From: Betaproteobacteria bacterium
GTDB lineage: Bacteria; Pseudomonadota; Gammaproteobacteria; Burkholderiales; SG8-39
NCBI GenBank assembly: GCA_004298385.1
Contig: SCTX01000040.1
Location: 32,571 to 96,570, forward strand
Direction: 5' to 3'
DNA length: 64,000 nt
Made by a program: the position numbers and the translations under genes. Below are positions 8,125-57,899 of this stretch, piece after piece. Position 1 is the stretch's first letter. Every line of letters begins with the position of its first letter. The notes under the pieces were generated by a model. It did not search any database and was not told where the DNA came from. It saw only the letters and a program-made list of their open reading frames with translations.

Positions 8125-8152
8125 GATCCCGTCCCCCAAGAGAAGTGATGCA

Positions 8153-12533: not shown

Positions 12534-12556
12534 GCTGACCCGTGCGCCTGCACCCA

Positions 12557-12621
12557 GCGGCGAACGGGCCTTGAGCCTTACGCAGCGCGACGCATGAGCG
12601 AGGCATCCATGCGCACCACAA
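12557..12621. repeat. Direct repeat copy B (~65 bp)
   Basis: Matches 9228-9296; here it encodes the authentic C-terminus ('VVVRMDASLMRRAA*') of the 12578..12949 gene plus about 20 bp downstream. Confidence 0.7.
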
Positions 12622-12949
12622 CATCATCCCACGGCACAAGAACATGATCGCCGGCGTCCTTCTCGATCAAGCCATGCTCAATCAGTCGCCGCACGTCGGC
12701 GTGAACGTTGCTGTAGTTCCTGCCCATCATCTTCGCCAGCGCTCGAATGGAGAGCGGACCGGCTTTTTTCAGTACCTGTAACAGCTCCATGCGCTTCGGC
12801 GACAGTTCCGCCACCAGTTGTGCGGGCGTGGAGAACGAAAGCTGGAAATCGCCCTCATGCATTTTCTCCCCGGCATCCAGACGGCGAGCGAAATCCTTGC
12901 CTTCCTGGAAAAACCCGTCGAGGGACTGAACGCCAATAATCGCCTTCAT
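12578..12949 (-). CDS. Winged-helix (MarR/HVO_A0114-like) DNA-binding protein, putative antitoxin/regulator
   Basis: 123 aa; 'PKRMELLQVLKKAGPLSIRALAKMMGRNYSNVHADVRRLIEHGLI'. Confidence 0.6.
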   Translation of the reverse strand: MKAIIGVQSLDGFFQEGKDFARRLDAGEKMHEGDFQLSFSTPAQLVAELSPKRMELLQVLKKAGPLSIRALAKMMGRNYSNVHADVRRLIEHGLIEKDAGDHVLVPWDDVVVRMDASLMRRAA

Positions 12950-13058
12950 GACTCTACCTCCTGCAATATTCGCTGCACTTCAGCCTGAAAATCATCCATC
13001 AGCCGCTCCAGGGATACGAAGGCATAAGTTGATTCCTGGTCTCTGCAATGACGATGAT

Positions 13059-39882: not shown

Positions 39883-40032
39883 TGACGTCTTCGAGACACC
39901 TGGTTCGGCGATGTCCCATCCGCGGTTGCGCGTCTAGTGTTGTGCACAATGATTGGAAATGGCCTAAAGAGGCCATCAACAATCTTGGCGGCGATATTAC
40001 AGGTATATTGGAAAGTGGAAGAAAAGAGATAC

Positions 40033-40299
40033 ATGGACACCTTAAGTTTCGATACGGACATGCTCAGCTATCACGACGGATTCGCCCAAGGCGATAACGT
40101 GCATTCGTCTATCATTAAACAGGGTGAAACGGCGACACATCCTCTAGTGTCCATAATGATACCAACGTGCCGACGCCCATCTCAATTAAGAGAAGCTATT
40201 GTGTCAGCGCTTGCACAAGACACGGATATTCCATATGAGGTGGTGGTTGTTGATAACGATTCGGAAGGGATGTGTAACGTTGAGCTGAGCTCCATTTAA
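40033..40299 (+). pseudogene. Truncated GT2 glycosyltransferase (5' fragment only)
   Basis: 'VSIMIPTCRRPSQLREAIVSALAQ..YEVVVVDNDSEG' then a stop about 35 residues into the GT2 domain. Lies at the AT-rich/GC-rich boundary. Confidence 0.6.
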
Positions 40300-40324: not shown

Positions 40325-41658
40325 TTAGAAATTCACGCCAAAGAAGGCTTCAATTCTTCCGGCTACAAAATCTAACATCTCTTCACTCAAGCCTGGGTAT
40401 ACGCCGATCCAGAGAGTGTCGTTCATCACCTTGTCGGAATTATTGAGTTCGCCGTTGATGCGATAGTGCGGCCTTCGAAGTACGGCTGGCGAGTGAGGTT
40501 GCCAGCGAACAGCAGGCGCGTGCCGATCTTGTATTGATCCAGGTATTTGATCAATTCAACCCGCGCTATTCCTGCCGATTCGCGCAACGTTATCGGAAAG
40601 CCGAACCAGGATGGCTCGCTGCCTGCGGTGGCTTCCGGCAGAATCAAGGATTCCTCACACGATTGCAAACGTTCTTTGAGTAACGCGAAGTTGTGCCTCC
40701 GCGCTTTGACGAATCCTGGCAGTCGATCCATCTGTGCCAGACCGCATGCCGCCTGCATGTCGGAGATCTTGAGGTTGTAGCCGAGGTGGGAGTAGGTGTA
40801 CTTGTGGTCGTAGCCTTGCGGCAAGTTGCCGAGTTGCCAACCGAAGCGCTTGCCGCAGGTATTGTCTTTGCCGGGCGCGCAATAGCAGTCGCGCCCCCAG
40901 TCGCGGTAGGACTCGGCAATCCGCTTGAGTTCCGGATTGTTGGTGAACACCGCGCCACCCTCGCCCATGGTGATGTGGTGGGCCGGGTAAAAACTCAAGG
41001 TGCCGATGTCGCCGAAGGTGCCGACCAGTTGGCCGTTGTAGGTCGAGCCGAGGGCGTCGCAGCAATCCTCGATCAGCCAGAGATTGTATTTCCGGCACAG
41101 CGCGGTAATCACATCCAGGTTGTAGGGATTGCCCAGGGTATGGGCCAGCATGACTGCACGGGTCTTCGGACCGATCGCGGCTTCGACCTTGGCGGCGTCG
41201 ATGTTGTAGGTGCCGAGTTCGATATCGACGAAAACGGGAACTGCGCCGAATTGCAGGATGGGGTTGACCGTGGTCGGGAAACCGGCGGCTACGGCGATGA
41301 CTTCATCTCCGGGCTTGATCGCGCGCTCGCCGAGGCTGGGTGAGGTCAGGGTGGAGAACGCGACCAGGTTGGCCGAGGAGCCGGAATTGACGGTGATCAG
41401 ATAGTTCACGCCGAGAAATTTCGCCAGCCGCTGCTCGAACTCGTCATTGAAACGGCCGGTGGTGAGCCAGCCGTCTAGCGAGGCTTCGACCATGTTCTTG
41501 AGCTCGGCCGCGCCGATCAGCTTGCCGGAGGGGGGGATAGGCGTCACGCCGGCCTCGAAGGGCCGCGGCGCGTGCGCCAGCTCCGCATACTCGGTGACGA
41601 GTCCTGCGATTTGTTGTCTCAGCGCGGCAGCGCGGGGGGAATCAGACACCGGTTTCAC
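40325..41658 (-). pseudogene. rfbH: RfbH/DdhC-like CDP-6-deoxy-4-hexulose 3-dehydrase (DegT/DnrJ fold), frameshifted near the 3' end
   Basis: ORF 40426..41658 ends '..[18 protein letters not shown]'. The adjacent frame continues '[47 protein letters not shown]' (stop 40325-40327). The 1-nt shift is at about 40468-40473. Confidence 0.8.
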
Positions 41659-41708
41659 TCCCTTGCTTTACCTATTGCTCGATCTGGTCGCACGCAGCGG
41701 CGCAAACA

Positions 41709-41972
41709 TCATCGGGGGAATAGCCCGGCCTGCCCACTACGAAATAGCGTGAGGAGCGGCGAGGCATTGACTACGACCTTGTCAATCCGCATCGCGCAGT
41801 TCGTCGTCCAACTCGCCTTCGGAATATTGGAAGGGGGTAACGCAATAGCGCGATAGCGCCGTACCTGGCCGAATTCGTCTGGCGCCTGATGCAGGCTCGC
41901 GAACACGGATTCGGGAACCTGCAATACCAATTGCGTCATGCGTTTCTCCTGCCTCAACCAGGGACCGACCAC
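41709..41972 (-). pseudogene. Decayed UPF0175-like antitoxin and DUF3368 (PIN-like) toxin remnant
   Basis: 'MTQLVLQVPESVFASLHQAPDEFGQ' (antitoxin N-terminus). Another frame gives '..TPFQYSEGELDDELRDAD*' (antitoxin C-terminus). Then 'IDKVVVNASPLLTLFRSGQAGLF..*' is a toxin N-terminus of only about 25 codons. Confidence 0.45.
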
Positions 41973-42024
41973 GGTCTTTCCGGTGGAACTTGGCGCTCTT
42001 CAGTTCGACGACAAGTACCTTTGT

Positions 42025-42240
42025 TCATGGCTTATTGGCGCGATTCAGAGAGTCGGCAAGCTTGTTTGCCGCCGTGGATATTTCCTCGACAGTCATTTCA
42101 GGCAGGCCGGTTCGGCGCCACTCGGTGTAGTCAAACTTGTCCCGAGACACAGCGACAAGAAAACGCTCGGCCTCTACCAGCCCGAGTGCGCTAATCAATG
42201 CTTGCATTCCTTTCATTCGAATTTCGGCTTCAGTTTTCAT
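42025..42240 (-). CDS. Small protein downstream of the PIN gene (putative partner/antitoxin)
   Basis: ATG 42240 gives 'MKTEAEIRMKGMQALISALGLVEAERFL'; overlaps the PIN gene end by 11 nt. Confidence 0.4.
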   Translation of the reverse strand: MKTEAEIRMKGMQALISALGLVEAERFLVAVSRDKFDYTEWRRTGLPEMTVEEISTAANKLADSLNRANKP

Positions 42241-42679
42241 ACCAGTTCTCCAGAAACGCCAATGCTTCGCCCGGCAGCATGACGGGCAATCCACCGACTT
42301 CGCGCATTTTCTTGATCAGACGGTCATCCGTTGTGACTAACAGATCTGCTTTTCCTGCCATTGCAGAAGCGACATGCAACGCGTCGTAGTGGCCGATCCC
42401 GTGTTCAGACAGTTTGAGCGCCACGGAAACCACAGAACGATCTGCCATGACTACCAACACAGCAAGGGTTCGCCATTGCTGTATGGCATGGCGGTGCTCT
42501 TCGTAAGGATTGTTGCTGCATTCGAAATCAAGCGCGGCTGACCAAACGAGGTCGCATTCAGCGTCTTTTATTTTTTGCTGCAACAGTACTTTCGCCTCGG
42601 TTTCCAAACGGATTCTGGCTGGACCTTGATCGTCGTAGGGACGATTGAAACAGCACATATCAAGATAAATGCGCATCAC
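42230..42679 (-). CDS. PIN-domain protein
   Basis: 'RIYLDMCCFNRPYDDQ', 'DALHVASAMAGKADLLVTTDDRL'. Confidence 0.65.
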   Translation of the reverse strand: MMRIYLDMCCFNRPYDDQGPARIRLETEAKVLLQQKIKDAECDLVWSAALDFECSNNPYEEHRHAIQQWRTLAVLVVMADRSVVSVALKLSEHGIGHYDALHVASAMAGKADLLVTTDDRLIKKMREVGGLPVMLPGEALAFLENWYEN

Positions 42680-42818
42680 ACTCCCATGCTTTCATGTGCT
42701 GGCCGACATTGGCGATTGCGGGATACGACCCGAGCGTCAATGCATATTGTAAGGCCTGTAAGGCCGCAACGAACTACGCGCTATTTCCTGCGCGCCAACC
42801 AGATTCGACGGTAGGCCG

Positions 42819-43175
42819 TCAATGCGAATGGCTTTCCTGGTAACCGGCGATTTGTCGCAGCGACACCGTTTGCATATTGTCGCCCGAAAGCATCTGCTTA
42901 TGCCAGCGGACAATACCCGCGAGCGCGGTCGGCAGGTCCCAGCGCGGATGCCAGCCCATCCTGGCGCGGGCTTTGGCGCAGTCGAGTTTGAGGGTGTGCG
43001 CTTCGTGCGGATGCGCATTGGCATCGAGTTGCCAGGACACGCCTTCGCCCCATTGGGCGGTGAGCTGCTCGACGATCCATTGCACCGGCCGCGCGTCGGT
43101 GTCGGGCGGGCCGAAATTCCAGCCTTCGGCATAGGCCGGGCCTTCGGTGCAGAGCTTCTCGGCGAGGGTACCTGA
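42819..43175 (-). pseudogene. rfbG: CDP-glucose 4,6-dehydratase (RfbG/DdhB) C-terminal fragment
   Basis: 'LAEKLCTEGPAYAEGWNFGPPDTDARPVQWIVEQLTAQWGEGVSWQLD..HPHEAHTLKLDCAKARARMGWHPRWDL'; about two thirds of the gene (5' part) is absent. Confidence 0.7.
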
Positions 43176-43330
43176 AGAACCGCGTCCTTATTGGCTTTCC
43201 GGCAGACCGATGAATATTCCGATGGCGACAAGAGCACGCTGGATGCTGATGTTCTGGAGTTGCGGGACCGCTATACTGTCGCTGGCCCAGGCGGGCGCTA
43301 GAAGGTCTCAGACTCAGGCCGCCTGGCGCT

Positions 43331-43537
43331 TCATGCCACATCATCGGAAATGGCGGCCTTTACCTGGTTTTTCTCGGAGCGATGTTGTTCCGCGAATTTG
43401 AAACCCAATGCGCGACAATGCGCCTCGGCTGCCAAGGAATAAGCAAGCAAGTCGTTTTGAAACTGGCTAGCGAGCCGCTCGCGAATAACATGGATTTCGG
43501 CGACGATAGGGTCGTGCCGGACCGCTGATTCTTTCAT
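43331..43537 (-). CDS. Small protein (68 aa), putative partner of the adjacent PIN-like fragment
   Basis: 'HDPIVAEIHVIRERLASQFQNDLLAY'; ATGA overlap with the upstream ORF. Confidence 0.45.
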   Translation of the reverse strand: MKESAVRHDPIVAEIHVIRERLASQFQNDLLAYSLAAEAHCRALGFKFAEQHRSEKNQVKAAISDDVA

Positions 43538-43818
43538 GGTGAAACCTCCATCAATTCAAATGGCGTAACCAATTCGGGCAAAGTGTAGCCCCTCGCGGCG
43601 CACAGGCCGCGCATCACCGGCAATCGTTCCGGATTGGCGATATGGGTACAGTTCCACGTTCGCAGCACATCGATGTCGTGATAGGTGGCACATGCAACAT
43701 GCAGCGCGTCAATGCGCGCACTCGCGGGTATCGTCTCGCTGCGCGGCGGCCCTGCACGGTGATGAAAGATTGTACGACGCTTGCTTCGCATTTGGTCAGG
43801 TCCGATCGGGCAACACAC
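43534..43818 (-). pseudogene. PIN-like toxin, C-terminal fragment
   Basis: 'DALHVACATYHDIDVLRTWNCTHIANPERL..GYTLPELVTPFELM' is the C-terminal third of a family that is normally much longer. The N-terminal part of the ORF reads through repeat sequence. Confidence 0.5.
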
Positions 43819-43856
43819 AGCTCGCGCTGGCGATCTAAAGCGCAGAAACGGCCAGG

Positions 43857-44149
43857 CTAGAACCCGGCTTCACGCTGGTGACGCACGGCAAGGATTGATA
43901 TCTGACGGCCGTCAAAGCGGTACAGAACGACATACCCGCTATCGCCGGATTCAATCGGCCAGAGGTGCGGTATTCGGGGTCGGTGTCTGCCAAAGCGCGT
44001 CCAACCTCGGGCTGGTCTTGCAGAATGCGGACTTGGCTGCGTATCGCGCCGACCGCCCGACGCGCGGCGTCCTGGCTCTTCAATGCCGGGAATTGATACA
44101 GGCGATGTATGTCGGCTAGGGTCGGGCCCGTCCAGATTAACCGTGGCAT
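43857..44149 (-). pseudogene. ParE/RelE-family toxin, frameshifted
   Basis: N-terminus 'MPRLIWTGPTLADIHRLYQF..DPEYR' in one frame, C-terminus 'LWPIESGDSGYVVLYRFDGRQISILAVRHQREAGF*' in another; shift at about 43960-43972. Confidence 0.65.
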
Positions 44150-44415
44150 TCAGGCGGATTGACGTTGTTGCCAGCTTCCAACTGTGCGAGCCACGCATCG
44201 GCCTCTTCGCCGGTAACGTGCTGGCCGGTCGCCTGATAGTGTTCCCAGGCTTCTCTTCCCGCCTGCAGAAATGCCTGGCGCTTCTCCTCACGATCGACAT
44301 ATTGCTCGATTGCCTCGCGCATCAGCCAATGTGCCGACCGTTGGCGCTGGCCCGCCAACGCAGTGATCCGCTCCTTGATGGTTTCGTCCAATCGAACGCT
44401 GACGGGTGTGGTCAT
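44137..44415 (-). CDS. CopG/RHH antitoxin (ParD-like)
   Basis: 'VSVRLDETIKERITALAGQRQRSAHWLMREAIEQYV'; overlaps the toxin start. Confidence 0.7.
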   Translation of the reverse strand: MTTPVSVRLDETIKERITALAGQRQRSAHWLMREAIEQYVDREEKRQAFLQAGREAWEHYQATGQHVTGEEADAWLAQLEAGNNVNPPECHG

Positions 44416-44651
44416 TGCGTACCTCAGTGGTGTAGTGCAGGTGACTACAGCGTGTTACTTTGGCGCCGATTATGCAAATGCTATCGTCTCGCCGTTCGGC
44501 GGGCCTGCACGGTGATGAACCGTGGTACGACGCTTCCGGCACGACGTCCGCGCCAGCTATGGTTAGCGGCCAATTCTCGACTGCCAGTAGCCTGGGCGGC
44601 GACGTTGGTGTGCAACAACTTCGATGCGCAGGACATCAGACGCGACTGGAA

Positions 44652-45021
44652 TCATCCCTCAAGGGGTAGGATCCTGGCGCGGGCTCTCGCCGGATCAACC
44701 GAGATCAGTGCGCCTCGCTCCAATCCATCTTGGAAGCGACGGATCGCTGCTATTACGGCATCGCCCGCGCCTTCCGGCAGCACATTTTCGGCCCGAATTT
44801 GGATCACGCTTGGCCCGCTTGCTTGCGTCGCTGCAAGAATGGCCCCGAAATCCAGATCGTGGGTAAAGACAATGCAACCATTGCTTCGGGCTCCATTCGA
44901 GAATGGAGCGGTCGGTTGCGCGAGGATCACCAATCGCGGACCAGTGAGTCGCATCCAACCCCGCCCCCATGAAGACCTCCACCCACTTGGGTGAAAGATT
45001 CATGTCGATGAGAAATTTCAT
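44652..45021 (-). pseudogene. DUF5615 (PIN-like) toxin, frameshifted
   Basis: 'MKFLIDMNLSPKWVEVF..DRSILEW' then, in another frame, 'ARSNGCIVFTHDLDFGAILAATQASGPSVIQIR..'; shift at about 44888-44895. Confidence 0.65.
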
Positions 45022-45284
45022 CAGGAAGCGAGAGGCAGTTCTTTCTCTTCAGCACGCCAGGCCGCATAGGTCAGCGCTTCCAGCACGTCTTGCCTCTCGA
45101 TATAAGGATACGCAGCCAGCACTTCGTCAATGGTCTTGCCCGATGCCATCAATCCTACCAATGTGCCCACGGTCACCCGCATATTCCTGATGCAGGGCTT
45201 GCCGCCCATCACTTGGGGATCCATCGTAATCCGACTCAATTTCTGCACGAGGCCCTCCGTTTCGGTTTGGGTTGATATTAGCAT
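45021..45284 (-). CDS. DUF433 antitoxin-like protein
   Basis: 'ITMDPQVMGGKPCIRNMRVTVGTLVGLMASGKTIDEVLAAYPYIERQDVLEAL'. Confidence 0.7.
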   Translation of the reverse strand: MLISTQTETEGLVQKLSRITMDPQVMGGKPCIRNMRVTVGTLVGLMASGKTIDEVLAAYPYIERQDVLEALTYAAWRAEEKELPLAS

Positions 45285-45381
45285 GGGCGCCGGCGGCGCT
45301 CTTACCGGAAACCTCCGATGTGGAGGGTCTCGGGCACGCTACCGCCCTGCAACATTGTGATCACCGAGTTCGCGCCGACGC

Positions 45382-45687
45382 TTACGCCATTTTGACTGGA
45401 TGTATTTCGTCAAAGCTGATCGATATCTTTTTACCTATGGCCTTTGCCGCTTTGGCGATCGTGGACAGCGTGACCGACGAATTCGCGGGATCGAGAAGAC
45501 GATCGAGTTGGGTGCGGCTCGTGCCCATCCGGCGCGCCATTTCGCTCTTGGTGATGTGCGTTTCCGCCATCGCTTGTTCGATCATGCAGGCCAACACTTT
45601 CTTGATCGCGGCCGCCTCCACTTCCTCGAAAATCCCCTCTTCCCGGAGGAACTCGTCAAAGTCCGATCCTATGTATGGGTTGCTCAT
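45382..45687 (-). CDS. XRE-family HTH antitoxin (HigA-like)
   Basis: 'ITKSEMARRMGTSRTQLDRLLDP'; 4-nt overlap with the upstream toxin. Confidence 0.7.
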   Translation of the reverse strand: MSNPYIGSDFDEFLREEGIFEEVEAAAIKKVLACMIEQAMAETHITKSEMARRMGTSRTQLDRLLDPANSSVTLSTIAKAAKAIGKKISISFDEIHPVKMA

Positions 45688-46094
45688 TTCGTACCTCTCA
45701 TTCGTTTCAAACGATCCTTCGCAAGATCCAGATCCGGTTTCGGCGTCTTCCTGTCCTTCTTGATGAACCCATGCAGAAGCACCATCGTAGTTCCTGCCCC
45801 CAAGGGGGGACGCGCCTCCATGGCGTCGACAACGAACAGCACTCGCGCAATTCGATTGGCCAGCCGAGTGCGCACTTCCCAGATATCGCCATCGATGTGA
45901 TCAACCAGCGGTAACCCAAGAGGCCAGCCAAATTGCACGGCCTTGATATCCTCACCGATCGCCTTTTTCTCGTCCAAAGGCAACGCTTTTAACCAATTCC
46001 TGACGGGTTCAGAGCCTGACGCACCTTGCTGGAAGAACTTGACCGCCAGCTTGGGCTCGTTCTTGACTGCCTTGACCGTATTGGATTGTACCAT
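45684..46094 (-). CDS. RelE/HigB (Gp49-like) toxin
   Basis: ATG 46094; 'IWEVRTRLANRIARVLFVV..MVLLHGFIKKDRKTPKPDLDLAKDRLKRM'; contains an atypical insert 'DAMEARPPLGAGTT'. Confidence 0.65.
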   Translation of the reverse strand: MVQSNTVKAVKNEPKLAVKFFQQGASGSEPVRNWLKALPLDEKKAIGEDIKAVQFGWPLGLPLVDHIDGDIWEVRTRLANRIARVLFVVDAMEARPPLGAGTTMVLLHGFIKKDRKTPKPDLDLAKDRLKRMRGTK

Positions 46095-46320
46095 TTTAGG
46101 TGCATCTCGCCACAATTAGTTCGAATTGCGCGCGCGGAGCGTAAGGGCAGGAGCATTGCCGGCGATGAGTTCGTCGATGCGGATTTGCATTGCATTTATC
46201 AGATCCGATCCGGCACGCTACCGCCCTGCAACACACTTGCGTGTTTCGCATAGATTTTGTTCTGCCGCGGTTGCTACATCGCGTCGTTCCTGCCTTCGGC
46301 GACGACTCGCTACGCCGCTA

Positions 46321-46475
46321 TTGCCCCTCCCTCGCAGGGCGCGCGTCCCGCTGCATCCCCCAAGGGGACTTCCTTCGGGGCGTCGGGACGCCGCTCGGCG
46401 AGCGGGCAGCCATGCTGCCCGAAACCCTCGCCTCGCCCCCGGCCCTCTCCCCGCAAGCGGGGCGAGGGAGAAATT
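46321..46475. repeat. Composite REP-like palindromic element, copy A (modules a-b-c)
   Basis: a: cccgctgcatcccccaaggggacttccttcggggcgtcgggacgcc; b: gctcggcgagcgggcagccatgctgcccgaaaccc; c: tcgcctcgcccccggccctctccccgcaagcggggcgaggg. Each module contains a hairpin. Confidence 0.7.
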
Positions 46476-46864
46476 CAACTGCGCTTGCCGAGTCGGCTGA
46501 CCTCGCGCTGCAATTGCTCGATCTCCGCCTTGAGCGATTCGTATTCGGCCATTTTGCGCTTGAGAAACTGTACCGTGATGGTGGCTTTGCTCTCGATGCC
46601 CCGCGGCGTGAGCAGGTAAGCGTAGGCCAGTTTGTTGTTGCTGTTGCGAAAGTTGCGCACCTTGACCAGGCCCTTGTCGATGAGGGCATTCAGGCAGTAG
46701 TTGACCTTGCCCAGGCTGGTGCCGAGTTCGCGGGCGAGATCGCGCTGGCTCAACTCGGGCCGGGCTTCGATCAGCCGCAGCAGGCGCAGATGGGTGTCTT
46801 CCATGGACCGCTCAATCATGGCGGGCTGATTGGAGTCGGCGGCGTCTTGGAGCGTGGAGGCCAT
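46475..46864 (-). CDS. MarR-family EPS-associated transcriptional regulator
   Basis: 129 aa; '[63 protein letters not shown]'. Confidence 0.75.
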
Positions 46865-46876
46865 GGTCAGGTGTGT

Positions 46877-46895
46877 GCGTTCAAGGCGTGAACGC
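46877..46895. promoter_or_regulatory. Palindrome directly upstream of the MarR gene (candidate auto-operator)
   Basis: gcgttca-aggcg-tgaacgc, 13 nt from the start codon; conserved in the duplicated copy at 48036-48054. A second IR cggatt-N8-aatccg lies at 46895-46914. Confidence 0.3.
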
Positions 46896-47161
46896 GGATT
46901 AGAGAACGAATCCGGGGGGATGTCAATTGGCAGGGGGTTGCTTGCGGCGTGCCTTAAAACGTACCCTCATTGCGATCGACGTGATATGCACGCGGGGTGA
47001 ACTCCTTTGCACCATGAAATACTCCCTAACCCGCGCCCAGTAAGGCTAAGGCTTATCAGGACCCCAATTCAACTGCCGTTTAGTGGTTGATAGATTGGCT
47101 ATTTGGTGCTATGGTGTTTTGGTGCAACTGTCCTACTTTGCACGCTTAATGGAGAAAACGA

Positions 47162-47410
47162 ATGAGCAGGCTGACTATCACGCTGGACGATTCACTGCAT
47201 CAGGCGCTGAAAGAAGCATCGGCAAGGCAGGGGCGCTCGATTGCGAAGATTATTGAGGAGGGACTGTTGCTTCGCGGAATCAAACCGGTGGAAAGCGCAA
47301 GGCATCTGGTGGCGCGTGCGCGTTTGCAATCGCGTCTCAGCGAAGAGGATGCGGTGAACCTGGCGGTCGAGGAAACGCGGGCCGAGAGGAAGTCTGAAAG
47401 GGCTGCTTGA
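47162..47410 (+). CDS. RHH (CopG/VapB-like) antitoxin
   Basis: 'MSRLTITLDDSLHQALKEASARQGRSIAKIIEEGL'. Confidence 0.7.
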   Translation: MSRLTITLDDSLHQALKEASARQGRSIAKIIEEGLLLRGIKPVESARHLVARARLQSRLSEEDAVNLAVEETRAERKSERAA

Positions 47411-47838
47411 TGCCGCCGGTGTTCATTGTCGATACCAATGTGGTGGTTGCGGCGCTGATCACGTCGCAGGTCGAGAGCCCCACCGCCAGGCTATTGGATG
47501 CGATGGTGAATGGCCGCCTGATTTATCTGTTGTCGCCGGCATTGCTTGGCGAGTATCGGGCCGTCTTGTTGCGGCCGCGTCTTATCCGCGCGCATGGGCT
47601 GGCGGAAGCCGAGATTGATACATTGCTGACGGAACTTACCGCCAATGCCATCTGGCGGGAGCCGCCCGCGGACGCCGAGCATCAGGCGCCTGACCCGAAT
47701 GACGCGCATTTGTGGGCGCTTCTGGCGTGCGAACCCGCTGCCGTGCTGGTGACGGGCGACCTATTGCTTCTGGATAATCCGCGCCCGGGCAGGTCGCTGA
47801 TTTCTCCGGCCACATGGGCTGGCGATCTGGTGGATTGA
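47407..47838 (+). CDS. PIN-domain toxin (VapC-like)
   Basis: 'VFIVDTNVVVAAL', 'DPNDAHLWALL', 'LVTGDLLLL'; ATGA overlap with the antitoxin. Confidence 0.75.
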   Translation: MMPPVFIVDTNVVVAALITSQVESPTARLLDAMVNGRLIYLLSPALLGEYRAVLLRPRLIRAHGLAEAEIDTLLTELTANAIWREPPADAEHQAPDPNDAHLWALLACEPAAVLVTGDLLLLDNPRPGRSLISPATWAGDLVD

Positions 47839-47840
47839 AG

Positions 47841-48023
47841 TCACAGTACGATGAAAAATTTCATCAGGAAGCGAGAGGCAGTTCTTTCGCGCGCGAGATC
47901 GCGCTGGCTCAGCTCGGGCCTGGCTTCGATCAGCCGCAGCAGGCGCAGATGGGTGTCTTCCATGGGCCGCTCAATCATGGCGGGCTGATTGGGGTCGGCG
48001 GCGTTTTGGAGTATGGAAACCAT
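47841..48023 (-). pseudogene. Duplicated 5' fragment of the MarR-EPS gene fused to a DUF433-tail/DUF5615-head junction
   Basis: '[46 protein letters not shown]' then 'RTASRFLMKFFIVL*'. 47848-47888 matches 45005-45045. Confidence 0.7.
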
Positions 48024-48190
48024 GGTCAGTTGTGTGCGTTCAAGTCGTGAACGCGGATTAGAGAACGAATCCGGGGGGATGTCAATTGGCAAGCGGTTAT
48101 CGTTGGGGGGCGAAGTAAGGGCCTTCATGACCCGCTCCCCACCAGCCACACCCATTTAAGGCAAAGACACCCGTAATTCGACAGAACTGT

Positions 48191-48424
48191 TCACGGATGT
48201 GGCGTGATCGCGATGATCGTTATCTCGCTCTTCCTTGGACCGTAGCACCGGAAGACGCGGTAGGCACCGGGTGTGTGGTTCTGAACGTATGCCTCGAAGA
48301 CCTTCGTGTCAGGATCGTAGGGATTCTCGATCGAGTTGTATTATTCGTGGGTCTTGAGGCCCGGGTGGCGAGGGTTGCCGGCCCGCTTTCCCGGTTCCAT
48401 CGTGATGATGTTGCGGTAGTCCAT
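48191..48424 (-). pseudogene. Decayed remnants: DUF433-like 5' piece and RelE/ParE-like 3' piece
   Basis: 'MDYRNIITMEPGKRAGNPRHPGLKTHE*' followed in the same frame by 'YNSIENPYDPDTKVFEAYVQNHTPGAYRVFRCYGPRKSEITIIAITPHP*'. Confidence 0.3.
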
Positions 48425-48566
48425 GACTGCGCCTTCGAGAACCTGTTGCCGCTCATCTTACCCGAGAAGCGAATTGCGCGAAATCGGTTCCAATAGCGGT
48501 TAGTGCTCAAGGGCGCGTCCTACGCGGGCCGCTTCGCCGGTGGGTGTGGCTGTTCTATGACTCCGG

Positions 48567-49709
48567 CTACATCTTTTGACTGCCTCGCCGGCCGGGCTTT
48601 GCTGACTGACGCTTTTGGCGGGCTTGCTCTTTTTGCATGAATTCGTCGAGCCGTTGTTCAAAACCCTGTGCCCGGTCCACCGGGACGAGCAGCGGCATGG
48701 TGGCGGAGGCGTTGATCAACGCATAGTTATAGGCGGGGTTCAATGCCTTGAACTCCTCGAACCGCATTTGGGCGAACCGCGCCGCCTGGGCCAGGTCGAC
48801 CTTGGCCGATCTCGCCACCACGGTGAAGTATCTCAGGTTCGGCACTGCGGGCAGTGCGACTTGGAACGATGATGGACTCATCACGATCTGTTTCACCGCC
48901 ATCAGCCGCGGGACGTAGTTGCGCGTTTCGGCGGGCAGTTGCAGGCTCGCAAAATCCGCGGGAAGCCCTTTGGCGCGGTTGCGCTCGATCGCACGCGCGA
49001 TCTGGTCCTCACCCCAGTTGTAGGCGGCAAGCGCCAGATGCCAGTCGCCGAACTGCAAGTGCAGGTCTTGCAGGTAGTCGAGCGCGGCGGTGGTCGAAGC
49101 GACGATGTCGCGGCGGGCATCGTAGTCGTTGTTCTGCGGCAGCTTGTAGCGGCTCGCGGTGCCGGGAATAAACTGCCACAGCCCGGAGGCCTGCGCCGGG
49201 GACAGCGCGAACGGGTCGAAGCCGCTTTCGACGAAAGGCAGCAGCGCAAGTTCCGTCGGCATGCCGCGCTTCTCGATTTCTTCGATGATATGGAACAGGT
49301 AATAGCGGCTGCGCTCGAGGATTTTCGTCACCCGCTCGGGGTGCGATGCGTACCAGGCTTCGGACTGCGCTGCTTCCTTGCTCTCGATTCGTGGCAGCGC
49401 GAAGCCGGCGCGGATGCGGTCCCAGACGTCGGCGAAATGGAGTTTGGCGTTGCGCGGGTCGTTGGGGTCCGGGAGGAAATTTAGGACCAAGGCGGGAAGT
49501 TGCGCTTCGTTTGTGTTTGCCTTAGCGTCTTGCGGCTGCGCTTCGGGAGAAGCGACCGGACGCAGCGCGGCTAGTTCGGGGTCAGGAGTTACGTTGAGGA
49601 AGGGGGACGCGAAAGAGAGCGACGACGCGCATATTAGAAGTACGATTGAAAATCGTGAGAATAGGTGACAAGCTCTCCCCTCCCTTGCAGGGCGCGCGTC
49701 CCGCTGCAT
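48567..49709 (-). CDS. Lytic transglycosylase (MltD-like SLT domain)
   Basis: 'LALLPFVESGFDPFALSPAQASGLWQFIPGTA', 'AAYNWGEDQIARAI'. The only in-frame ATG (49709) lies inside REP copy B, so the start is uncertain; hydrophobic 'FSIVLLICASSLSFASP' follows. Confidence 0.7.
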   Translation of the reverse strand: MQRDARPAREGRACHLFSRFSIVLLICASSLSFASPFLNVTPDPELAALRPVASPEAQPQDAKANTNEAQLPALVLNFLPDPNDPRNAKLHFADVWDRIRAGFALPRIESKEAAQSEAWYASHPERVTKILERSRYYLFHIIEEIEKRGMPTELALLPFVESGFDPFALSPAQASGLWQFIPGTASRYKLPQNNDYDARRDIVASTTAALDYLQDLHLQFGDWHLALAAYNWGEDQIARAIERNRAKGLPADFASLQLPAETRNYVPRLMAVKQIVMSPSSFQVALPAVPNLRYFTVVARSAKVDLAQAARFAQMRFEEFKALNPAYNYALINASATMPLLVPVDRAQGFEQRLDEFMQKEQARQKRQSAKPGRRGSQKM

Positions 49710-49923
49710 CCTCCAAGGGGACTTCCTTCGGGGCGTCGGGACGCCGCTCGGCGAGCGGGCAGCATGTTGCCCGAAACCCTCGCCTCGCCCCCGGCCCTCT
49801 CCCCGCAAGCGGGGCGATGGAGAAGAACACCGTCGTTCCGGAGAGCGCTGTGAGGAAATATCTTTCTGCGACCAGCGGCGCGCGAGGAGGGTCTCCTCCT
49901 CTCCCCGCAAGCGGGGCAAGGAG
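49672..49923. repeat. Composite REP-like element, copy B (a-b-c plus an extra c hairpin)
   Basis: 49700-49819 is collinear with copy A; a second 'ctccccgcaagcggggc' hairpin lies at 49893-49923. Confidence 0.7.
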
Positions 49924-49985
49924 ACGCACTTAGGCGAGCTGGGCGAGGGAGTTTGTATGGCACTCGTGCGGTCTTGGCGCATCGC

Positions 49986-51383
49986 TCAGAACTTTCCGAA
50001 TTTCAACTTGCCGAAGGGGTCGCCGTCGCGCTCGAGGATTTTCATCAATCGCTGGATCACTTGATTGGCTTCGGCGTGGCCGCGTTCGGCGGCTTTTGCG
50101 TACCATTCCAGCGCGAGGCGGCTGTCTCGTTTCACGCCCAGCCCTTCGTCGTGGAGAACGGCAATCCGGTACAGCGCCTCGGGGTATCCGGCGTCGGCGG
50201 CGCGCTCGTAGCGGCGCAGCGCTTGTGCGTAGTCTCGCTCGACGCCCTTGCCCGCTTCGTAGAGCAGCCCAAGGCGCAAGTCGGCGTTGCGCCAACCCGC
50301 GGCGGACGCTTTTTCGTACCATGCGGACGCCTCCCTGGGCGAGCGCAACACGGGCGGACCTTCGTCGAGCAATATCGCCAGGCGCAGCCCGGCTTCTGCA
50401 TCGCCGCGTATCGCCGCTTCGCGGTACCAGCGAACCGCTGCATGCGGATCTTTGGCGGCGCCGACGCCATATTCCAGGAACGATCCAACCACTCGCTCGG
50501 CCGCAGGCAATCCCGCGTATGCGGCGGCCATGGCTAACCGCATCGCGCGGGGCTCGTCGGCGGCTTTGAATCCGTCTCCGGCAAGCTGCAATGCAAGCAG
50601 GTGCTGCGCCAGAGGATTGCCTTGCGCGGCCGACTTTTCGATCCAAGCTATTCCTTGAACCGGGTCGCGCGCGACGCCCTTGCCTTCGTAGAGCGCCTTG
50701 CCCAGCTTGTATTGGGCCATGTCGTGCCCACCCTGCGCGGCTTTTTCATACCACTCAAGCGCAGCCGCCGGTTTGGGCACATTCTGTTCCGGCGCATTGG
50801 CCGCGCGCTCGCGCAATGCCACATTCGGCACACCCTGTTCCGGCGCAATGGTCCCGCTCTCGTATAGAAGACCGACGTGATAGGCCGCGATTCCACTTCC
50901 CGCTGCCGCCGCCTTGGTGTACCAGCTTAGGGCCTGTTCGATGCTGCGCTGCACCCCCCGGCCTTCCTGGTAGAGCCGGCCGAGGTTGTACTGCGCTTCG
51001 CCATCGCCCGCGGCGGCGGCACGTTCGTACCAGAACGCCGCTTCCTGCTCGTTCTTCGCCACGCCGAGCCCGTTCTCCAGCATGAAGCCGAAAGCGTTTT
51101 GCGCGCCCGCATGGCTTTTGGTGGCCGCGCGCTTGAAGAGACCGGCCGCTTGCTCATGGTCCCTGCGCACGAGCTTTCCCTCGAAGGCCAGCGTTGCAAG
51201 ACGATAAAGGGATTCGGGGTCGTGGCGTTCGGCGGCTTGCTTGAGGCGCTCGAGCGTGACGGCGCCGCCTTCAGCAGTTGGGCTGACAATGGCTTCCGTC
51301 ATATCTGGCGTTGCCGCGGCCGCGAGGAATGGCTGCCCGAGAAATAGGACTGCGACTACTGCAATGTTGCGAAAATACAACAT
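49986..51383 (-). CDS. Sel1-repeat periplasmic protein (right copy)
   Basis: Start set at 'MLYFRNIAVVAVLFLGQPFLAAAATP' (the ORF extends to 51449). It has about 10 Sel1-type units, e.g. 'A..WY.KAA..G...AQY.LG..Y..G.GV..D'. Confidence 0.75.
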   Translation of the reverse strand: MLYFRNIAVVAVLFLGQPFLAAAATPDMTEAIVSPTAEGGAVTLERLKQAAERHDPESLYRLATLAFEGKLVRRDHEQAAGLFKRAATKSHAGAQNAFGFMLENGLGVAKNEQEAAFWYERAAAAGDGEAQYNLGRLYQEGRGVQRSIEQALSWYTKAAAAGSGIAAYHVGLLYESGTIAPEQGVPNVALRERAANAPEQNVPKPAAALEWYEKAAQGGHDMAQYKLGKALYEGKGVARDPVQGIAWIEKSAAQGNPLAQHLLALQLAGDGFKAADEPRAMRLAMAAAYAGLPAAERVVGSFLEYGVGAAKDPHAAVRWYREAAIRGDAEAGLRLAILLDEGPPVLRSPREASAWYEKASAAGWRNADLRLGLLYEAGKGVERDYAQALRRYERAADAGYPEALYRIAVLHDEGLGVKRDSRLALEWYAKAAERGHAEANQVIQRLMKILERDGDPFGKLKFGKF

Positions 51384-51648
51384 AGGAGATTTCCGCCGGC
51401 AATCGTCTCTGTACCGTTTTGCCATAGTCTGAAATCGTGACCGCTCCATCTATGGCCGCTCATTCTTGTCAGCTTACCACAGGCATTATTATGGTTGCCG
51501 TGGGAAACGTTAAATTAGGCGAAGTTCTGGATACTTTACTTTTTACGCGAAATGTGTCTAATATGTTATTGAGATCGTTGTCATTTTATTGAGACGTGCG
51601 GAGGTGGGTGAAAGGCTTCCCCCTCATCCTAGCCCTCTCCCCGCAAGC

Positions 51649-51747
51649 GGGGCGAAGGAACATGGCGTCTCTGCCGACAAACGGGGTAAGGGAACATGAC
51701 GTCACTGCCGACAAAAGTGGGGCGAGGAAACATGACGTTATTTCCGG
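51649..51747. repeat. ~35-bp tandem repeat, 2.8 copies, in the divergent promoter region
   Basis: Units start at 51649, 51683 and 51719: ggggcgaaggaacatggcgtctctgccgacaaac / ggggtaagggaacatgacgtcactgccgacaaaagt / ggggcgaggaaacatgacgttatttcc. Unit 2 contains the palindrome tgacgtca. Confidence 0.6.
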
Positions 51748-51912
51748 TATGCAAAGGGAGGAACAGTTTAGCTTCCCACAAAGCTTTTAATTGCATAGAA
51801 TATCTGTCCTCCTGAAGAATAAGAAGAAACTGAGTACTGAATTTTTATTGCGCATGTCGCATGTATATTAAGGCTTGCAATAGCAAGAGGTCGACGAGAT
51901 CGCGTACGGAGA

Positions 51913-53151
51913 ATGAAAATGCTGACAACAAATTCGCTTGTGACACGCCGGATGTTTTCGAAGTTCGGATTCTTGCTGAGTGCATTGGCCGCGAACGCGA
52001 TCGCGCAGAGTCCTCCGGGCTCGATCCCTGTCGGGCCGATGTTCGCTTACCCGGAACTGGAAGTTGCCGCCAAGAGGGACAGCAATATCGCGCTCGTGCC
52101 GGACGCGCTGCGCAAAGCGGACACGATCTGGTACCTGCGCCCCACGGTGCGCCTAGAAGCCAAACAAGGGGTCAACATTTACGACGTGGGTTATCGCGGC
52201 GAATACGGCCGCTTTGACAGCCAGAAGACCGACGATTTCGAGAACCACGATTTCTTTGCGAACGCGAACGTGACGCTCGATGCGCGAAACAACGTCAAGC
52301 TCGGGGTCCAATATCTGGACAAAGTGGATCCGCGCGGTACCCTGAATCTGGCCGCTACGCCGACGCCGAACCAGTACCGCCAGCCCATCGTCACGGGGCT
52401 GTACACCTACGGCGCCGAAGATGCCAAAGGGAAACTGGAATTGAAAGGCGGCTACTATGACAAGCGTTACGTCAACAATCGCGATTTGGGGACCTCTGCG
52501 CTCGACCACACCAATACCGACTATGGCGGCACCTTCCTTTGGAGGGTGATGCCGAAAACCTACGCCACCTTCAATCTCCGCCAGGAAATCTACGACTACA
52601 AGCAATCGACGGTTACCCTGGACAGCACGAACACCTACGCACTCGTCGGTCTACGCTGGGAGGCTACTGCGGCCACATCGGGCAGGTTCTCGCTAGGCAA
52701 TCTGAGGAAGAAATTCGACGCGGCCGGACAAAACGCCGGGCGCCGCGACTTCTCTGGGTTTGCGTGGACGGGCGGGATCAACTGGAAACCGCTGCGCTAT
52801 TCCAGCGTCGATTTCAATACGCAGCGCAATGCTAACGACTCCACCGGTTTGGGAAATTTCACCATCAACCAGACCTATCAACTCGGTTGGACGCATGCCT
52901 GGACTAGCCGCGTCAGCTCGAATGTGACGGGAAGCTATTCGAACGACAAGTTCAACGCAGCGCCCGTCGCGGCCGCCGGTGGCGCCGACCGGGAAGACAG
53001 CACCAAATCCATAGGGCTGGGCCTCACTTATAGCGTACAGCGCTGGCTGAAAGTCGGCGCCGACTATACCCATGGCTTGCGCGACTCCAATGACAACAAC
53101 TTCGATTACAGGCGCAACCAGTTGATGTTCTTCCTTCGGGGCACGCTGTAG
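51913..53151 (+). CDS. Outer-membrane beta-barrel protein, EPS-export associated (right copy)
   Basis: Signal peptide 'FGFLLSALAANAIAQS'; paralogue of 2983..4269; start at 51913 or 51919. Confidence 0.6.
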   Translation: MKMLTTNSLVTRRMFSKFGFLLSALAANAIAQSPPGSIPVGPMFAYPELEVAAKRDSNIALVPDALRKADTIWYLRPTVRLEAKQGVNIYDVGYRGEYGRFDSQKTDDFENHDFFANANVTLDARNNVKLGVQYLDKVDPRGTLNLAATPTPNQYRQPIVTGLYTYGAEDAKGKLELKGGYYDKRYVNNRDLGTSALDHTNTDYGGTFLWRVMPKTYATFNLRQEIYDYKQSTVTLDSTNTYALVGLRWEATAATSGRFSLGNLRKKFDAAGQNAGRRDFSGFAWTGGINWKPLRYSSVDFNTQRNANDSTGLGNFTINQTYQLGWTHAWTSRVSSNVTGSYSNDKFNAAPVAAAGGADREDSTKSIGLGLTYSVQRWLKVGADYTHGLRDSNDNNFDYRRNQLMFFLRGTL

Positions 53152-53287
53152 CAAAAGCCCGGAAAATTGCTCTAAAATAACTGTTGTTGGTTATTGGCGC
53201 ACCTTGGGCGGGTGGGGCGGCGGGGTTTGTTTGGGCCGACCCGACCGCTCGTCAATGCGGTCTAATTAGGACATTCGAAGTAACACC

Positions 53288-53842
53288 ATGGGGCGACGCG
53301 TTTGGTACGTACTTGCCATAGGCTTGTTGGTCTTTTTGCCGAGGCTGGTGCATGCGCAGGCGGGCGATGATCTGCTGTCGCGCTATCGCCTGGCGTCGGG
53401 GGACGTCATTTCCATCTATGTGCTCGGCGAAGAAGAGCTCAAACGCGAAAAAGTGCGCCTCACCGACGCCGGCACCATCCAGTATGCCGTGCTCGGCGAA
53501 ATCCGCATCAAGGGGCTGACCGCGGGGGAACTGGAGCAGAAGATCACTTCCGGCCTCATCGAAAAACGCTATCTCCTGACTCCCAAGGTCAGCGTCAGCA
53601 TCGACGAATACCGCCCGTTTTTCATCAACGGCGAAGTGTACAAGCCCGGCGGCTATCCTTATGTTCCCGGGCTCACAGTGCTCAAGGCGGTATCGATCGC
53701 CGGGGGATTCAAGGATCGCGCATCCAAGAGAAACATGTTCGTGGTGCGCGACGGCGCCGCGAACGAACAGCGCAAGAAAGTGGAACTGGACACCGCGATC
53801 TATCCGGGCGATATCCTGACGGTCGAAGAAAGCTTCTTTTAG
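53288..53842 (+). CDS. Short Wza-like polysaccharide export (OPX) periplasmic protein (right copy)
   Basis: 'VLAIGLLVFLPRLVHAQAG' signal with no Cys (no lipobox); 'IDEYRPFFINGE', 'PGDILTVEESFF'. Confidence 0.8.
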   Translation: MGRRVWYVLAIGLLVFLPRLVHAQAGDDLLSRYRLASGDVISIYVLGEEELKREKVRLTDAGTIQYAVLGEIRIKGLTAGELEQKITSGLIEKRYLLTPKVSVSIDEYRPFFINGEVYKPGGYPYVPGLTVLKAVSIAGGFKDRASKRNMFVVRDGAANEQRKKVELDTAIYPGDILTVEESFF

Positions 53843-53853
53843 CAAAGCCAAAC

Positions 53854-56104: not shown

Positions 56105-56327
56105 CCATGGACGCCGCTTCACTTGCAGAGCGCGGCGTCCCGACGCCCCGAAGGAAGTCCCCTTGGGGGATGCAGCGGGCTCGCCGCTCGGCGAGCGGGC
56201 AGCATGCTGCCCGAAACCCGCGCCTCGCCTCCAGCCCGCTGCCGCGTTGCCGGTGGATAGAGAGAAAACCCCCTCGCCCCGCTTGCGGGGACAGGGCTGG
56301 GGTGAGGGGACAACTGAAACGCAGTTG
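56105..56327. repeat. Composite REP-like element, copy C (modules a and c inverted, b direct)
   Basis: 56134-56179 is the reverse complement of module a; 56180-56219 is module b; 56270-56310 is the reverse complement of module c. An extra hairpin caactg-aaacg-cagttg follows. Confidence 0.7.
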
Positions 56328-57211: not shown

Positions 57212-57886
57212 ATGCTGCTGCTCGGATTGTTCGCTTACAAAGCAAGCACGGAAGGGCTGTCGAATTTCTACGCGCAGTCGGCGCAGCTCGAAATCGAGCG
57301 CTGGTCGAAACCCGGGCAAACACTGCGTGGGGACGAGGGGACGCGCGTGATGCAATACCTCGGAAGCAGCCTGGACCACTCGCCGAACAATCCCTGGCCT
57401 CTGGAAGTCATGGGAACGCTGCAATTGCGCAGCATGAGCGCCGCCAAGGATCCGCAGCTCGCCATGGCGGCCGCTCGCGGCGCCAACGTGAACTTCCGCA
57501 TGGCGCTGGCGCAGAGGCCGACTTCGCCTTTTGCGTGGGCAAGCCTCGCGCTGACCAAGCTTTATCTTGGCGAGCAGGACGAGGAACTGTTCCGGGCGCT
57601 CGAGCGCGCGGAGGAACTGGGCCCCTGGGAGCCCGAGGTCCAGCAAGCGGTGGTCTTCGTCGGCCTCACGCTGTGGAATCGGCTGAACCCGGCCCAACAG
57701 GCCACGGTGGTCCGGGCGATGGACCGAGGCGCGCGACGCAATCCCGGTAAAATTGCCGAAATTGCCAAAACTTTCGATCGTATTGACCTGTTTTGTGGTT
57801 TAAGCTACAGTGATTCTCAGGGTAGGGAAGTCTGTAGTTCAATCAGCAAGTCCGGGTTCGCAAAAAAGCGCGACCGACAACAATGA
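57212..57886 (+). CDS. Hypothetical membrane-anchored protein with helical-repeat-like domain
   Basis: ATG 57212 ('MLLLGLFAYKAS..'). An alternative GTG at 57095, 3 nt after the phosphatase stop, would add a basic N-terminus encoded partly by REP-like sequence. Confidence 0.45.
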   Translation: MLLLGLFAYKASTEGLSNFYAQSAQLEIERWSKPGQTLRGDEGTRVMQYLGSSLDHSPNNPWPLEVMGTLQLRSMSAAKDPQLAMAAARGANVNFRMALAQRPTSPFAWASLALTKLYLGEQDEELFRALERAEELGPWEPEVQQAVVFVGLTLWNRLNPAQQATVVRAMDRGARRNPGKIAEIAKTFDRIDLFCGLSYSDSQGREVCSSISKSGFAKKRDRQQ

Positions 57887-57899
57887 AGGGGCAAATGCC

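Follow-up and report, generated by a model that had tools for sequence, protein, structure and literature searches.

Probable toxin-first erosion of a toxin-antitoxin islet at the junction of an exchangeable polysaccharide locus in a betaproteobacterium

Enterobacterial O-antigen loci are known to carry gene remnants where exchanged O-antigen or capsule clusters join their surroundings. For chromosomal toxin-antitoxin (TA) islets a stepwise model has been published, in which modules settle in permissive spots of high turnover, the genes linked to them are streamlined away and the toxin is inactivated before the antitoxin is lost (Belot, Payelleville, Jurenas, Rocha & Van Melderen 2026, Mol Biol Evol, PMC13617665). 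The TA pseudogenes of Photorhabdus comprise 185 cases with a lesion in the toxin only, 186 with lesions in both partners and 8 in the antitoxin only, and one ParE/RelE module there lies between the copies of a duplicated recombination site (PMC13617665). TA cassettes, finally, are common knowledge for chromosomal integrons (Richard et al. 2024, PMC13108822). Here we examine a TA island at positions 41709-48424 of a 64,000-nt stretch of DNA (hereafter the window) from the assembly GCA_004298385.1 of a Betaproteobacteria bacterium (contig SCTX01000040.1, 32,571-96,570 of the forward strand). The junction zone around the island extends to ~39937, and the analysis covers that part of the genome that lies in the window. 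An initial annotation had described the island as a graveyard in which toxins are preferentially broken while their antitoxins stay intact.

We consider it likely that the island is a TA islet that built up in the recombination-prone junction of an exchanged exopolysaccharide (EPS) or O-antigen-type cluster and that is eroding toxin-first. Modules would have entered at three hot spots: between a lytic transglycosylase gene and the gene of a MarR family EPS-associated regulator (MarR-EPS), in the ops/JUMPstart-like leader between that regulator and the first sugar genes, and between rfbG and rfbH (DegT). They would be gained and swapped by recombination, two of the cassettes being bracketed by direct repeats of local leader sequence that may have mediated insertion, and they would be read through from the ops leader. 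Once inserted, a module would erode along with everything else in the junction zone: a frameshift of 1 nt or the loss of the 5' end would first disable its toxin, and its antitoxin, harmless by then, would linger as a neutral leftover until deleted. Toxin-first would be the only viable, and hence the only observable, order because loss of the antitoxin with an active toxin is lethal. Toxin-first decay of TA modules is already known, and the island is a clear, ordinary and well-resolved further instance of it. What is mildly new is the location, in the leader of an ops-led polysaccharide operon, bracketed by an ops duplicate and a putative attC relic.

Features lie on the minus strand unless stated otherwise. 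From 46864 down to 40325 they run as follows: MarR-EPS, a 149-nt intergenic repeat, an ops element, a Gp49 toxin with a helix-turn-helix (HTH) partner, a second ops element, DUF433, DUF5615, the repeat copy D4a, CopG, ParE, the repeat copy D4b, the end of a VapC gene with its 68-aa partner (p68), the end of rfbG, a PIN-domain toxin of 149 aa (PIN149) with its 71-aa partner (p71), a UPF0175 remnant with a 27-aa stub, and the DegT/RfbH-type aminotransferase. Upstream of MarR-EPS follow, in order, a ribbon-helix-helix (RHH)/PIN_3 pair on the opposite strand, a putative recombination scar, two short stubs and the lytic transglycosylase gene. The eight items listed in the initial annotation are each present at the positions given there, apart from the names of the stubs at 48191-48424. 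Family identities are based on Pfam and NCBIfam/TIGR profiles and on homologue alignments, with PDB and BLASTP searches for the stubs.

Two toxin genes carry 1-nt frameshifts. In the native ParE gene (43835-44149), three-frame translation places the two halves in different frames, with the switch at ~43962-43972 and no uninterrupted frame, and only positions 1-58 of the PF05016 profile are in frame. Upon repair, that is, conceptual removal of one indel followed by rescoring against the Pfam profile, the match extends over positions 1-88 of 89 (E=3.6e-13; 50.3 bits versus a cut-off of 23). The neighboring 92-aa CopG/RHH antitoxin (44137-44415), now an orphan, is intact (PF01402, E=5e-11, profile positions 2-39 of 39), and a homologous pair with both partners intact is carried by another contig (L044). 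The PIN-like DUF5615 toxin (44652-45021) is split near 44893 and matches its Pfam profile in two frames, at positions 1-46 and 44-108; the repaired protein matches positions 1-108 of 110 (E=1.1e-23). Its orphaned partner, the 87-aa DUF433 antitoxin (45021-45284), is complete (PF04255, 1-56 of 56, E=9.5e-24), so that one frame of this pair is intact and the other is not.

The ParE frameshift region is 100% identical in two Logan assemblies of different Sequence Read Archive (SRA) runs, L004 (SRR8426588, covering window positions 40544-44681 and hence the ParE site) and L005 (SRR16110274, covering 43692-45042 and hence both sites). The DUF5615 frameshift region is 100% identical in L005, and the same frameshift is present in two contigs of metagenome-assembled genomes (MAGs; L001 and L002) and in two Joint Genome Institute (JGI) metagenome contigs (L091 and L093), all four of which differ from the window by substitutions elsewhere. 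Given this agreement across read sets obtained independently, MAGs and metagenome contigs, both frameshifts are real and not sequencing errors. Each lesion is a single indel, with both halves otherwise open, no secondary stop and 0-1 substitution between strains; the toxin lesions thus look young. The initial annotation had placed frameshifts at about 43960-43972 in a ParE-like toxin beside an intact CopG and at about 44888-44895 in DUF5615 beside an intact DUF433, and had taken the lack of homopolymer runs as a mild, unproven argument against sequencing error. Profile searches, repair and independent assemblies all agree with it, and neither site is a homopolymer run. Antitoxin lesions on alignment to the families, named there as a refutation, were not found, p68, CopG and DUF433 being free of lesions and the latter two full over their profiles. 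Programmed frameshifting or a split-toxin function was also considered; nothing was found that speaks for either, and a slippery motif is absent from both sites. As a separate observation, window positions 44591-46238, from DUF5615 through HigB and ops, show zero differences from L001 over 1.65 kb, the flanks of this segment differ from L001 by ~1 per 100 nt, and L091 and L093 differ from the window within it, which suggests a recent transfer or sweep.

The third toxin is truncated. Of the 159 residues of the VapC (PIN) toxin, the gene at 43534-43728 encodes only the final 64, which share 80-95% identity with the C-terminal ends of a conserved family of 159-aa VapC proteins; this is ~40% of the protein rather than the C-terminal third first reported, and both the truncation and the intactness of the small partner stand. 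Genes of this family are always followed by a 68-aa gene with a 4-nt overlap. In the window the toxin is cut and the partner, p68 (43331-43537), a candidate orphan antitoxin, is full length. Searched separately, since a chimeric query of the VapC fragment plus p68 gave VapC matches only, p68 has 42 homologues, nearly all of 68 aa. It keeps 19 of the 19 invariant columns of a 27-sequence alignment, A17V being the sole change at a column conserved at 90% or more. DNA homology of the VapC fragment to full operons starts at 43730, which is the edge of D4b (43729-43782), a 54-nt copy of an attC-like element that lies after ParE and is joined directly to mid-VapC. Because the breakpoint falls exactly at the repeat edge, the truncation is a rearrangement junction and not a mutation aimed at the toxin. 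The interval rearranged at this breakpoint lacks cysC, rfbF and two thirds of rfbG relative to the sister strain L001.

Comparison with relatives documents how quickly the content of the locus changes. L001 is 99.2% identical to window positions 44481-55270, a similarity that runs as far as repeat D4. On the far side of the repeat come, in L001, cysC, rfbF and an undamaged rfbG, an Unstab_antitox/ParE pair and a 441-aa DegT gene that is likewise intact; besides the loss of sugar genes from the window, the two strains differ in the TA modules that occupy the same positions. A module of a further kind, of the DUF433 type, lies between rfbG and DegT in L091. In a related species (L006), two MazEF pairs, a UPF0175 stub and an RHH/PIN_3 pair lie between the transglycosylase (SLT) gene and MarR, and in L012 a HigBA-like pair directly follows ops. 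L015 has the order MarR-ops-rfbF-rfbG-rfbH without TA genes, which looks like the uncluttered layout. From these comparisons taken together we read the locus as an exchangeable polysaccharide locus with three TA hot spots, at the leader and at internal junctions. The polysaccharide cluster itself (15000-40000; 15-40 kb), which encodes a Wzx flippase, methyltransferases, an SDR protein, an epimerase and a GHMP kinase, has a GC content of 0.49-0.57 versus 0.60-0.65 in the flanks and is not common to the 99%-identical strain L001. This is consistent with horizontal replacement of the whole cluster.

Among the TA pairs of the island, three have a lesion in the toxin only and none in the antitoxin only (sign test p=0.125). 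Under a length-proportional null, the probability that all three lesions hit the toxin is 0.21, and when all 16 TA genes are counted, 5 of 8 toxins and 2 of 8 antitoxins are broken (Fisher p=0.31). The asymmetry lies in the predicted direction and is not significant. Moreover, four non-TA genes are broken in the same 8.5 kb, and the statement that toxins are preferentially broken is therefore not upheld. The first is the 3' fragment of rfbG (CDP-glucose 4,6-dehydratase; 42819-43169, TIGR02622 positions 269-351 of 352), which holds the last ~117 codons and shares 95% identity with the corresponding part of the undamaged gene in L001 and L091. The second is the DegT/RfbH-like aminotransferase gene (40325-41658, Pfam profile positions 6-321 of 360), with a -1 frameshift near 40463; it has a 1-nt deletion relative to the intact 441-aa orthologue of L001, which puts the last ~40 residues out of frame (open reading frame (ORF) 40325-40429). 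An exact-product look-up of the 410-aa DegT ORF returned no record. The remaining two are an N-terminal stub of a glycosyltransferase family 2 (GT2) gene on the plus strand at the edge of the junction zone (39937-40299, PF00535 positions 1-37 of 168 only) and a partial copy of MarR. In the adjacent polysaccharide cluster (25-40 kb), 10 of 10 sampled ORFs are long and uninterrupted, 7 with Pfam matches essentially end to end and 3 without a Pfam match. The decay belongs to the junction zone, and neither to the genome at large nor to toxins in particular.

Selection offers an alternative reading, in which p68, CopG and DUF433 would be maintained, under positive or purifying selection, as anti-addiction or cross-neutralising modules that protect the cell from related toxins, whether brought in by mobile elements or encoded at other places in the genome. 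The antitoxins are, as described above, full length and undamaged with respect to their families. The combination of a broken DUF5615 and an intact DUF433 is common to at least 6 independent assemblies (L001, L002, L005, L091, L093 and the window), and DUF433 differs between the window and L091 and L093 at 4 nt, of which 3 are synonymous and 1 is non-synonymous, giving 1 aa change. All cassettes lie downstream of ops and could be transcribed, no terminator-like site being predicted on the minus strand at 40-50 kb. The PIN149/p71 pair provides a further parallel. PIN149 (42230-42679; PF01850, 25.8 bits versus a cut-off of 23.6) is intact, and so is its presumed antitoxin p71 (42025-42240), whose start overlaps the PIN149 stop codon (ATGAAAACTGA) and which has no Pfam family but more than 100 homologues that are likewise 71 aa long and 90-99% identical, in agreement with the intact pair originally annotated. 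In contigs from other metagenomes (L095-L098), the PIN149 homologue has repeatedly been cut down to its 45 C-terminal residues or carries an internal deletion, with p71 intact next to it, and these loci adjoin sugar epimerase/dehydratase genes, as in the window. This pattern fits either a generic decay path or a weak retention of p71. An exact-product look-up of PIN149 returned no record, and NCBIfam gave no names for p68, p71, PIN149 or Gp49.

However, no similarity could be detected between the orphans and the cognate antitoxins of the intact toxins: p68 and p71 give no alignment, and CopG matches the RHH VapB with E=1.3 (a comparison within the window only). The proposal that the orphans cross-neutralise the intact toxins of the island accordingly finds no support. 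Since the toxin lesions look young, the antitoxins have had no time to decay, and their intactness needs no selective explanation. In addition, the lesion counts are not significant, non-TA genes decay in the same zone, and a neutral two-step model predicts the same picture. We therefore regard selection for the orphans as unlikely. The initial annotation had spoken of selection or drift toward toxin loss with retention of antitoxins; the broken toxins and undamaged antitoxins remain, and selection for orphans is not needed to account for them.

Repeat D4 raises the question of whether the TA modules arrived as gene cassettes of an integron. Its two 54-nt copies, 43729-43782 and 44482-44535, are spaced by 753 nt and bracket CopG-ParE. 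A metagenome scan with the D4 core retrieved the orthologous locus twice and three genuine integron cassette arrays (L090, L092 and L094), in each of which a different cassette follows an attC homologous to D4. D4a in its full extent (44474-44566, core 44482-44535) aligns to a known attC, a8506, with 64 identical positions across the 88-nt site (96-column alignment; blastn E=6.6e-8). On this basis the island could be a decayed cassette array, or CALIN (cluster of attC sites lacking integron integrases), with the D4 copies as its attC sites. The homology over ~88 nt to an attC that precedes three different cassettes would agree with such an origin, as would the co-orientation of the cassettes, their length of 750-880 nt, the position of the VapC truncation, which joins no more than 2 nt from the cassette-switch position of the three arrays, and the familiarity of TA cassettes in chromosomal integrons (PMC13108822).

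Against this, a covariance model (R1) built from 12 attC sites, which recovered more than 20 attCs in L090, L092 and L094 at E<1e-9, including sites outside the training set, recognised no site in the island, against the two or more expected of a cassette array. Its best related score, 13.9 bits (E=0.26), was obtained with the L001 copy of D4 and likewise with that of L091. The R' box of D4a reads GAT instead of GTT, no D4 hairpin is predicted, and the DNA folds no better than shuffled sequence (z = -0.8 to +2.0). A heuristic scan of the island for R''/R' pairs found nothing, and no attC-like sequence was found at the other cassette boundaries. The 64-kb window encodes no integron integrase; its sole tyrosine recombinase, at positions 3-530 and 41 kb from the island, is XerD (TIGR02225 E=4e-79, versus E=3e-31 for integron integrase). 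With the covariance model, the R''/R' scan and the fold tests all negative in the island, a functional integron or CALIN was rejected, and we think it very improbable that the modules came with a cassette array that has since decayed. Because the homology to attC is full-length but R' is mutated, and because there is no hairpin, no covariance match and no integrase, D4 is best read as an attC relic in an island that is not a working cassette array.

The second repeat, D8, is tied to the ops leader. Its 25-nt copies, 45330-45354 and 46209-46233, are spaced by 879 nt, bracket HigBA and each contain an exact ops. These two coding-strand copies of GGCGGTAGCGTG are the sole exact matches in the window, and the ops consensus GGCGGTAGNNTG is thus matched exactly upstream of a polysaccharide operon. 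The first ops, with the hairpin upstream of it (46214-46252), stands next to MarR-EPS (46475-46864; TIGR04176 E=3.4e-48, above cut-off), a context kept in at least 8 relatives, with the same position found in many Burkholderiales/Nitrosomonadales MAGs, and the hairpin shows compensatory changes at four pairs. The Rfam JUMPstart model (RF01707) gives this copy 21.1 bits and the second (45335-45346) 17.1 bits, both below its gathering score of 35; nor does any other Rfam family attain its own gathering score in the window. The first ops looks like a JUMPstart-like leader outside the enterobacteria that is sub-threshold in Rfam. Because the flank of the second ops resembles the relative L016, two leader alleles may have been joined here by recombination. 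Treating D4 and D8 as one repeat family was tried and dropped, since they share only TGCAGGGC, a motif that is not enriched in the window.

A more elaborate scheme would make the ops leader a landing pad that takes up TA cassettes by integron-type (attC x secondary site) or ops-homology recombination. Cassettes, orphans included, would then be co-transcribed under RfaH-type antitermination as a constitutive antitoxin library that immunises the cell against addiction modules and marks or stabilises the exchangeable cluster. We give this scheme very little credence. As for the possibility that the frameshifts are sequencing or assembly artefacts and the toxins really intact, the window does appear to derive from uncultured or metagenomic material and the DegT frameshift at 40463 does fall in a gap between two contigs of the same run, but the identity of the ParE and DUF5615 sites in assemblies of different SRA runs and the recurrence of the DUF5615 frameshift in MAGs and JGI contigs, at positions that are not homopolymer runs, essentially exclude artefact for the two toxins and make this the least credible explanation of all.

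Several observations weigh against the preferred reading of a TA islet eroding toxin-first in the junction of an exchanged cluster. There are only three discordant pairs, and the asymmetry by itself proves nothing either way. The orphans are well preserved (the invariant columns of p68 are kept, and DUF433 has the 3:1 ratio of synonymous to non-synonymous differences given above), which leaves room for some purifying selection. The role of D4 and D8 in insertion is read from geometry only, with no recombinase gene near the island. The DegT site, ~40463, lies in the 96-nt gap (40448-40543) between two SRR8426588 Logan contigs and hence outside independent assembly coverage; this frameshift could be an assembly error, and the gap itself may reflect polymorphism or assembly ambiguity.

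The remaining modules of the island range from intact to nearly erased. The HigB-like Gp49 toxin (45684-46094; PF05973, E=1.3e-20) and its HigA-like HTH antitoxin (45382-45687; HTH_26 and HTH_37, with a weak antidote_HigA match) are intact, and the odd insert that had been noticed in the toxin is real and lineage-specific. None of the 10 closest homologues has the 10 inserted residues, AMEARPPLGA, and the toxin keeps every invariant residue. In a confident AlphaFold model (pLDDT 84.7) the insert forms a low-confidence loop between the beta-strands 82-91 and 102-112 of a beta-hairpin. Because it is predicted to be a floppy loop between two strands and the invariant residues are kept, it is no obvious lesion. 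The pair annotated as VapBC is likewise intact: an RHH antitoxin of 82 aa and a PIN_3 VapC toxin of 143 aa lie at 47162-47838 on the plus strand, opposite to the rest, with matches to Pfam ParD/RHH_1 and PIN_3 and to TIGR00305.

At the other end of the range, the UPF0175 remnant followed by the 27-aa stub (41709-41939) lies directly against the region upstream of DegT. Of the UPF0175 profile, positions 1-27 and 53-74 are present, in different frames, and 28-52 are missing, the result of an internal deletion plus a frameshift; the N-terminus is 80% identical to the UPF0175 of L006, which itself scores E=5e-18. This pair had been annotated as UPF0175/DUF3368 decayed in both partners. The decay of UPF0175 holds, whereas the DUF3368 name is without profile support, Pfam, NCBIfam and PDB searches of the DUF3368-like stub having given no match. 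Similarly, the stubs at 48191-48424, described as DUF433-like and RelE-like, exist, but their family names are unconfirmed. On translation they read as a possible DUF433 N-terminus followed by a possible RelE-like C-terminus and form a single fused ORF of 76 aa in L001; they have no Pfam, NCBIfam or PDB match, and a weak BLASTP hit to DUF433 (E=0.037) is the sole support for a family name. Between these stubs and the RHH/PIN_3 pair, at 47849-48098 (repeat families D1 and D6, partial Pfam HTH_24), a 40-nt copy of the junction between the DUF433 end and the DUF5615 start (47849-47888) runs straight into a second copy, 213 nt long, of the MarR 5' region (47886-48098), which is 93% identical to 46727-46939. 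The two MarR copies diverge more (93%) than the strains do (99%), and the segment has the look of a scar left when recombination replaced an older allele.

The GC-rich intergenic repeat beside MarR-EPS is ~149 nt long, contains a palindrome (CCTCTCCCCGCAAGCGGGGCGAGG) and occurs at 46324-46472, 49677-49824 and 56119-56270. One of the copies makes the N-terminus of the lytic transglycosylase ORF look longer than it is, and the motif CCCCCAAGGGG of this element is also present in the 30-nt higB insertion. Elsewhere in the window, positions 6400-13000 form a second accessory patch, with an NTP_transf_8 nucleotidyltransferase reduced to its C-terminal half, a DUF2283 gene, two AAA_14/DUF4143 ATPases and an HVO_A0114-type winged-helix gene; it may be another decaying defence or TA spot. 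A 750-aa ORF on the plus strand (57810-60062), with no Pfam match, has a signal-like N-terminus, an Ala/Thr/Gln-rich low-complexity region of ~450 residues and proline-rich VVAPP repeats at its end; its local GC content is 0.77 and its AT skew 0.42.

Within 7 kb the island holds every stage of TA erosion: intact pairs, toxin frameshifts, a toxin truncation, a pair with both partners decayed and bare stubs, and sister strains document the speed at which its content turns over. It extends the pattern quantified in Photorhabdus to an uncultured betaproteobacterium and shows that TA modules can accumulate in the leader of an exchangeable polysaccharide operon as well as at junctions within it. It also calls for caution, since broken toxins next to intact antitoxins are no proof of selection for orphans without population data or functional tests.

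How does the island compare with described systems? Like anti-addiction modules and orphan antitoxins (Saavedra De Bast et al. 2008; PMC2654758, PMC7354431), it has chromosomal antitoxin genes without a functional cognate toxin, but the window contains no homologous active toxin for them to neutralise, and they are not similar to the antitoxins of the intact toxins. With sedentary chromosomal integrons and CALINs (Cury et al. 2016, PMC4889954; Richard et al. 2024, PMC13108822) it shares co-oriented, cassette-sized TA units and one repeat homologous to a genuine attC. It differs in having no attC recognised by the covariance model, a mutated R', no predicted hairpin and no integrase in the window, and in that the array lies inside the leader of a polysaccharide operon and not next to attI. 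The leader resembles the ops/JUMPstart of RfaH-dependent operons (RF01707; PMC6391919) in its exact 12-nt ops, the hairpin before it, the long co-oriented polysaccharide cluster downstream and its conserved position. On the other hand, the scores are 21.1 and 17.1 versus 35 bits, there are two copies with HigBA between them, and the host is a betaproteobacterium.

The TA islets of Photorhabdus (PMC13617665) have much in common with the island: they too are small, high-turnover clusters without nearby mobile-element genes, in which the toxin is lesioned first and both partners are then lost, antitoxin-only lesions are rare, a duplicated recombination site flanks a module, and close genomes differ at the same spot. 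In contrast, the present islet, known from sequence alone, belongs to an uncultured betaproteobacterium (Burkholderiales/Nitrosomonadales-like) and occupies the leader and internal junctions of a polysaccharide operon, and its flanking repeats are an ops box and an attC-like relic instead of a Tn3 res site. The remnants at O-antigen and capsule junctions, in turn, are matched here by truncated or frameshifted sugar genes (rfbG, DegT and GT2) at the border of a low-GC cluster, with content that varies between near-identical strains; the difference is that this junction is also packed with TA modules.

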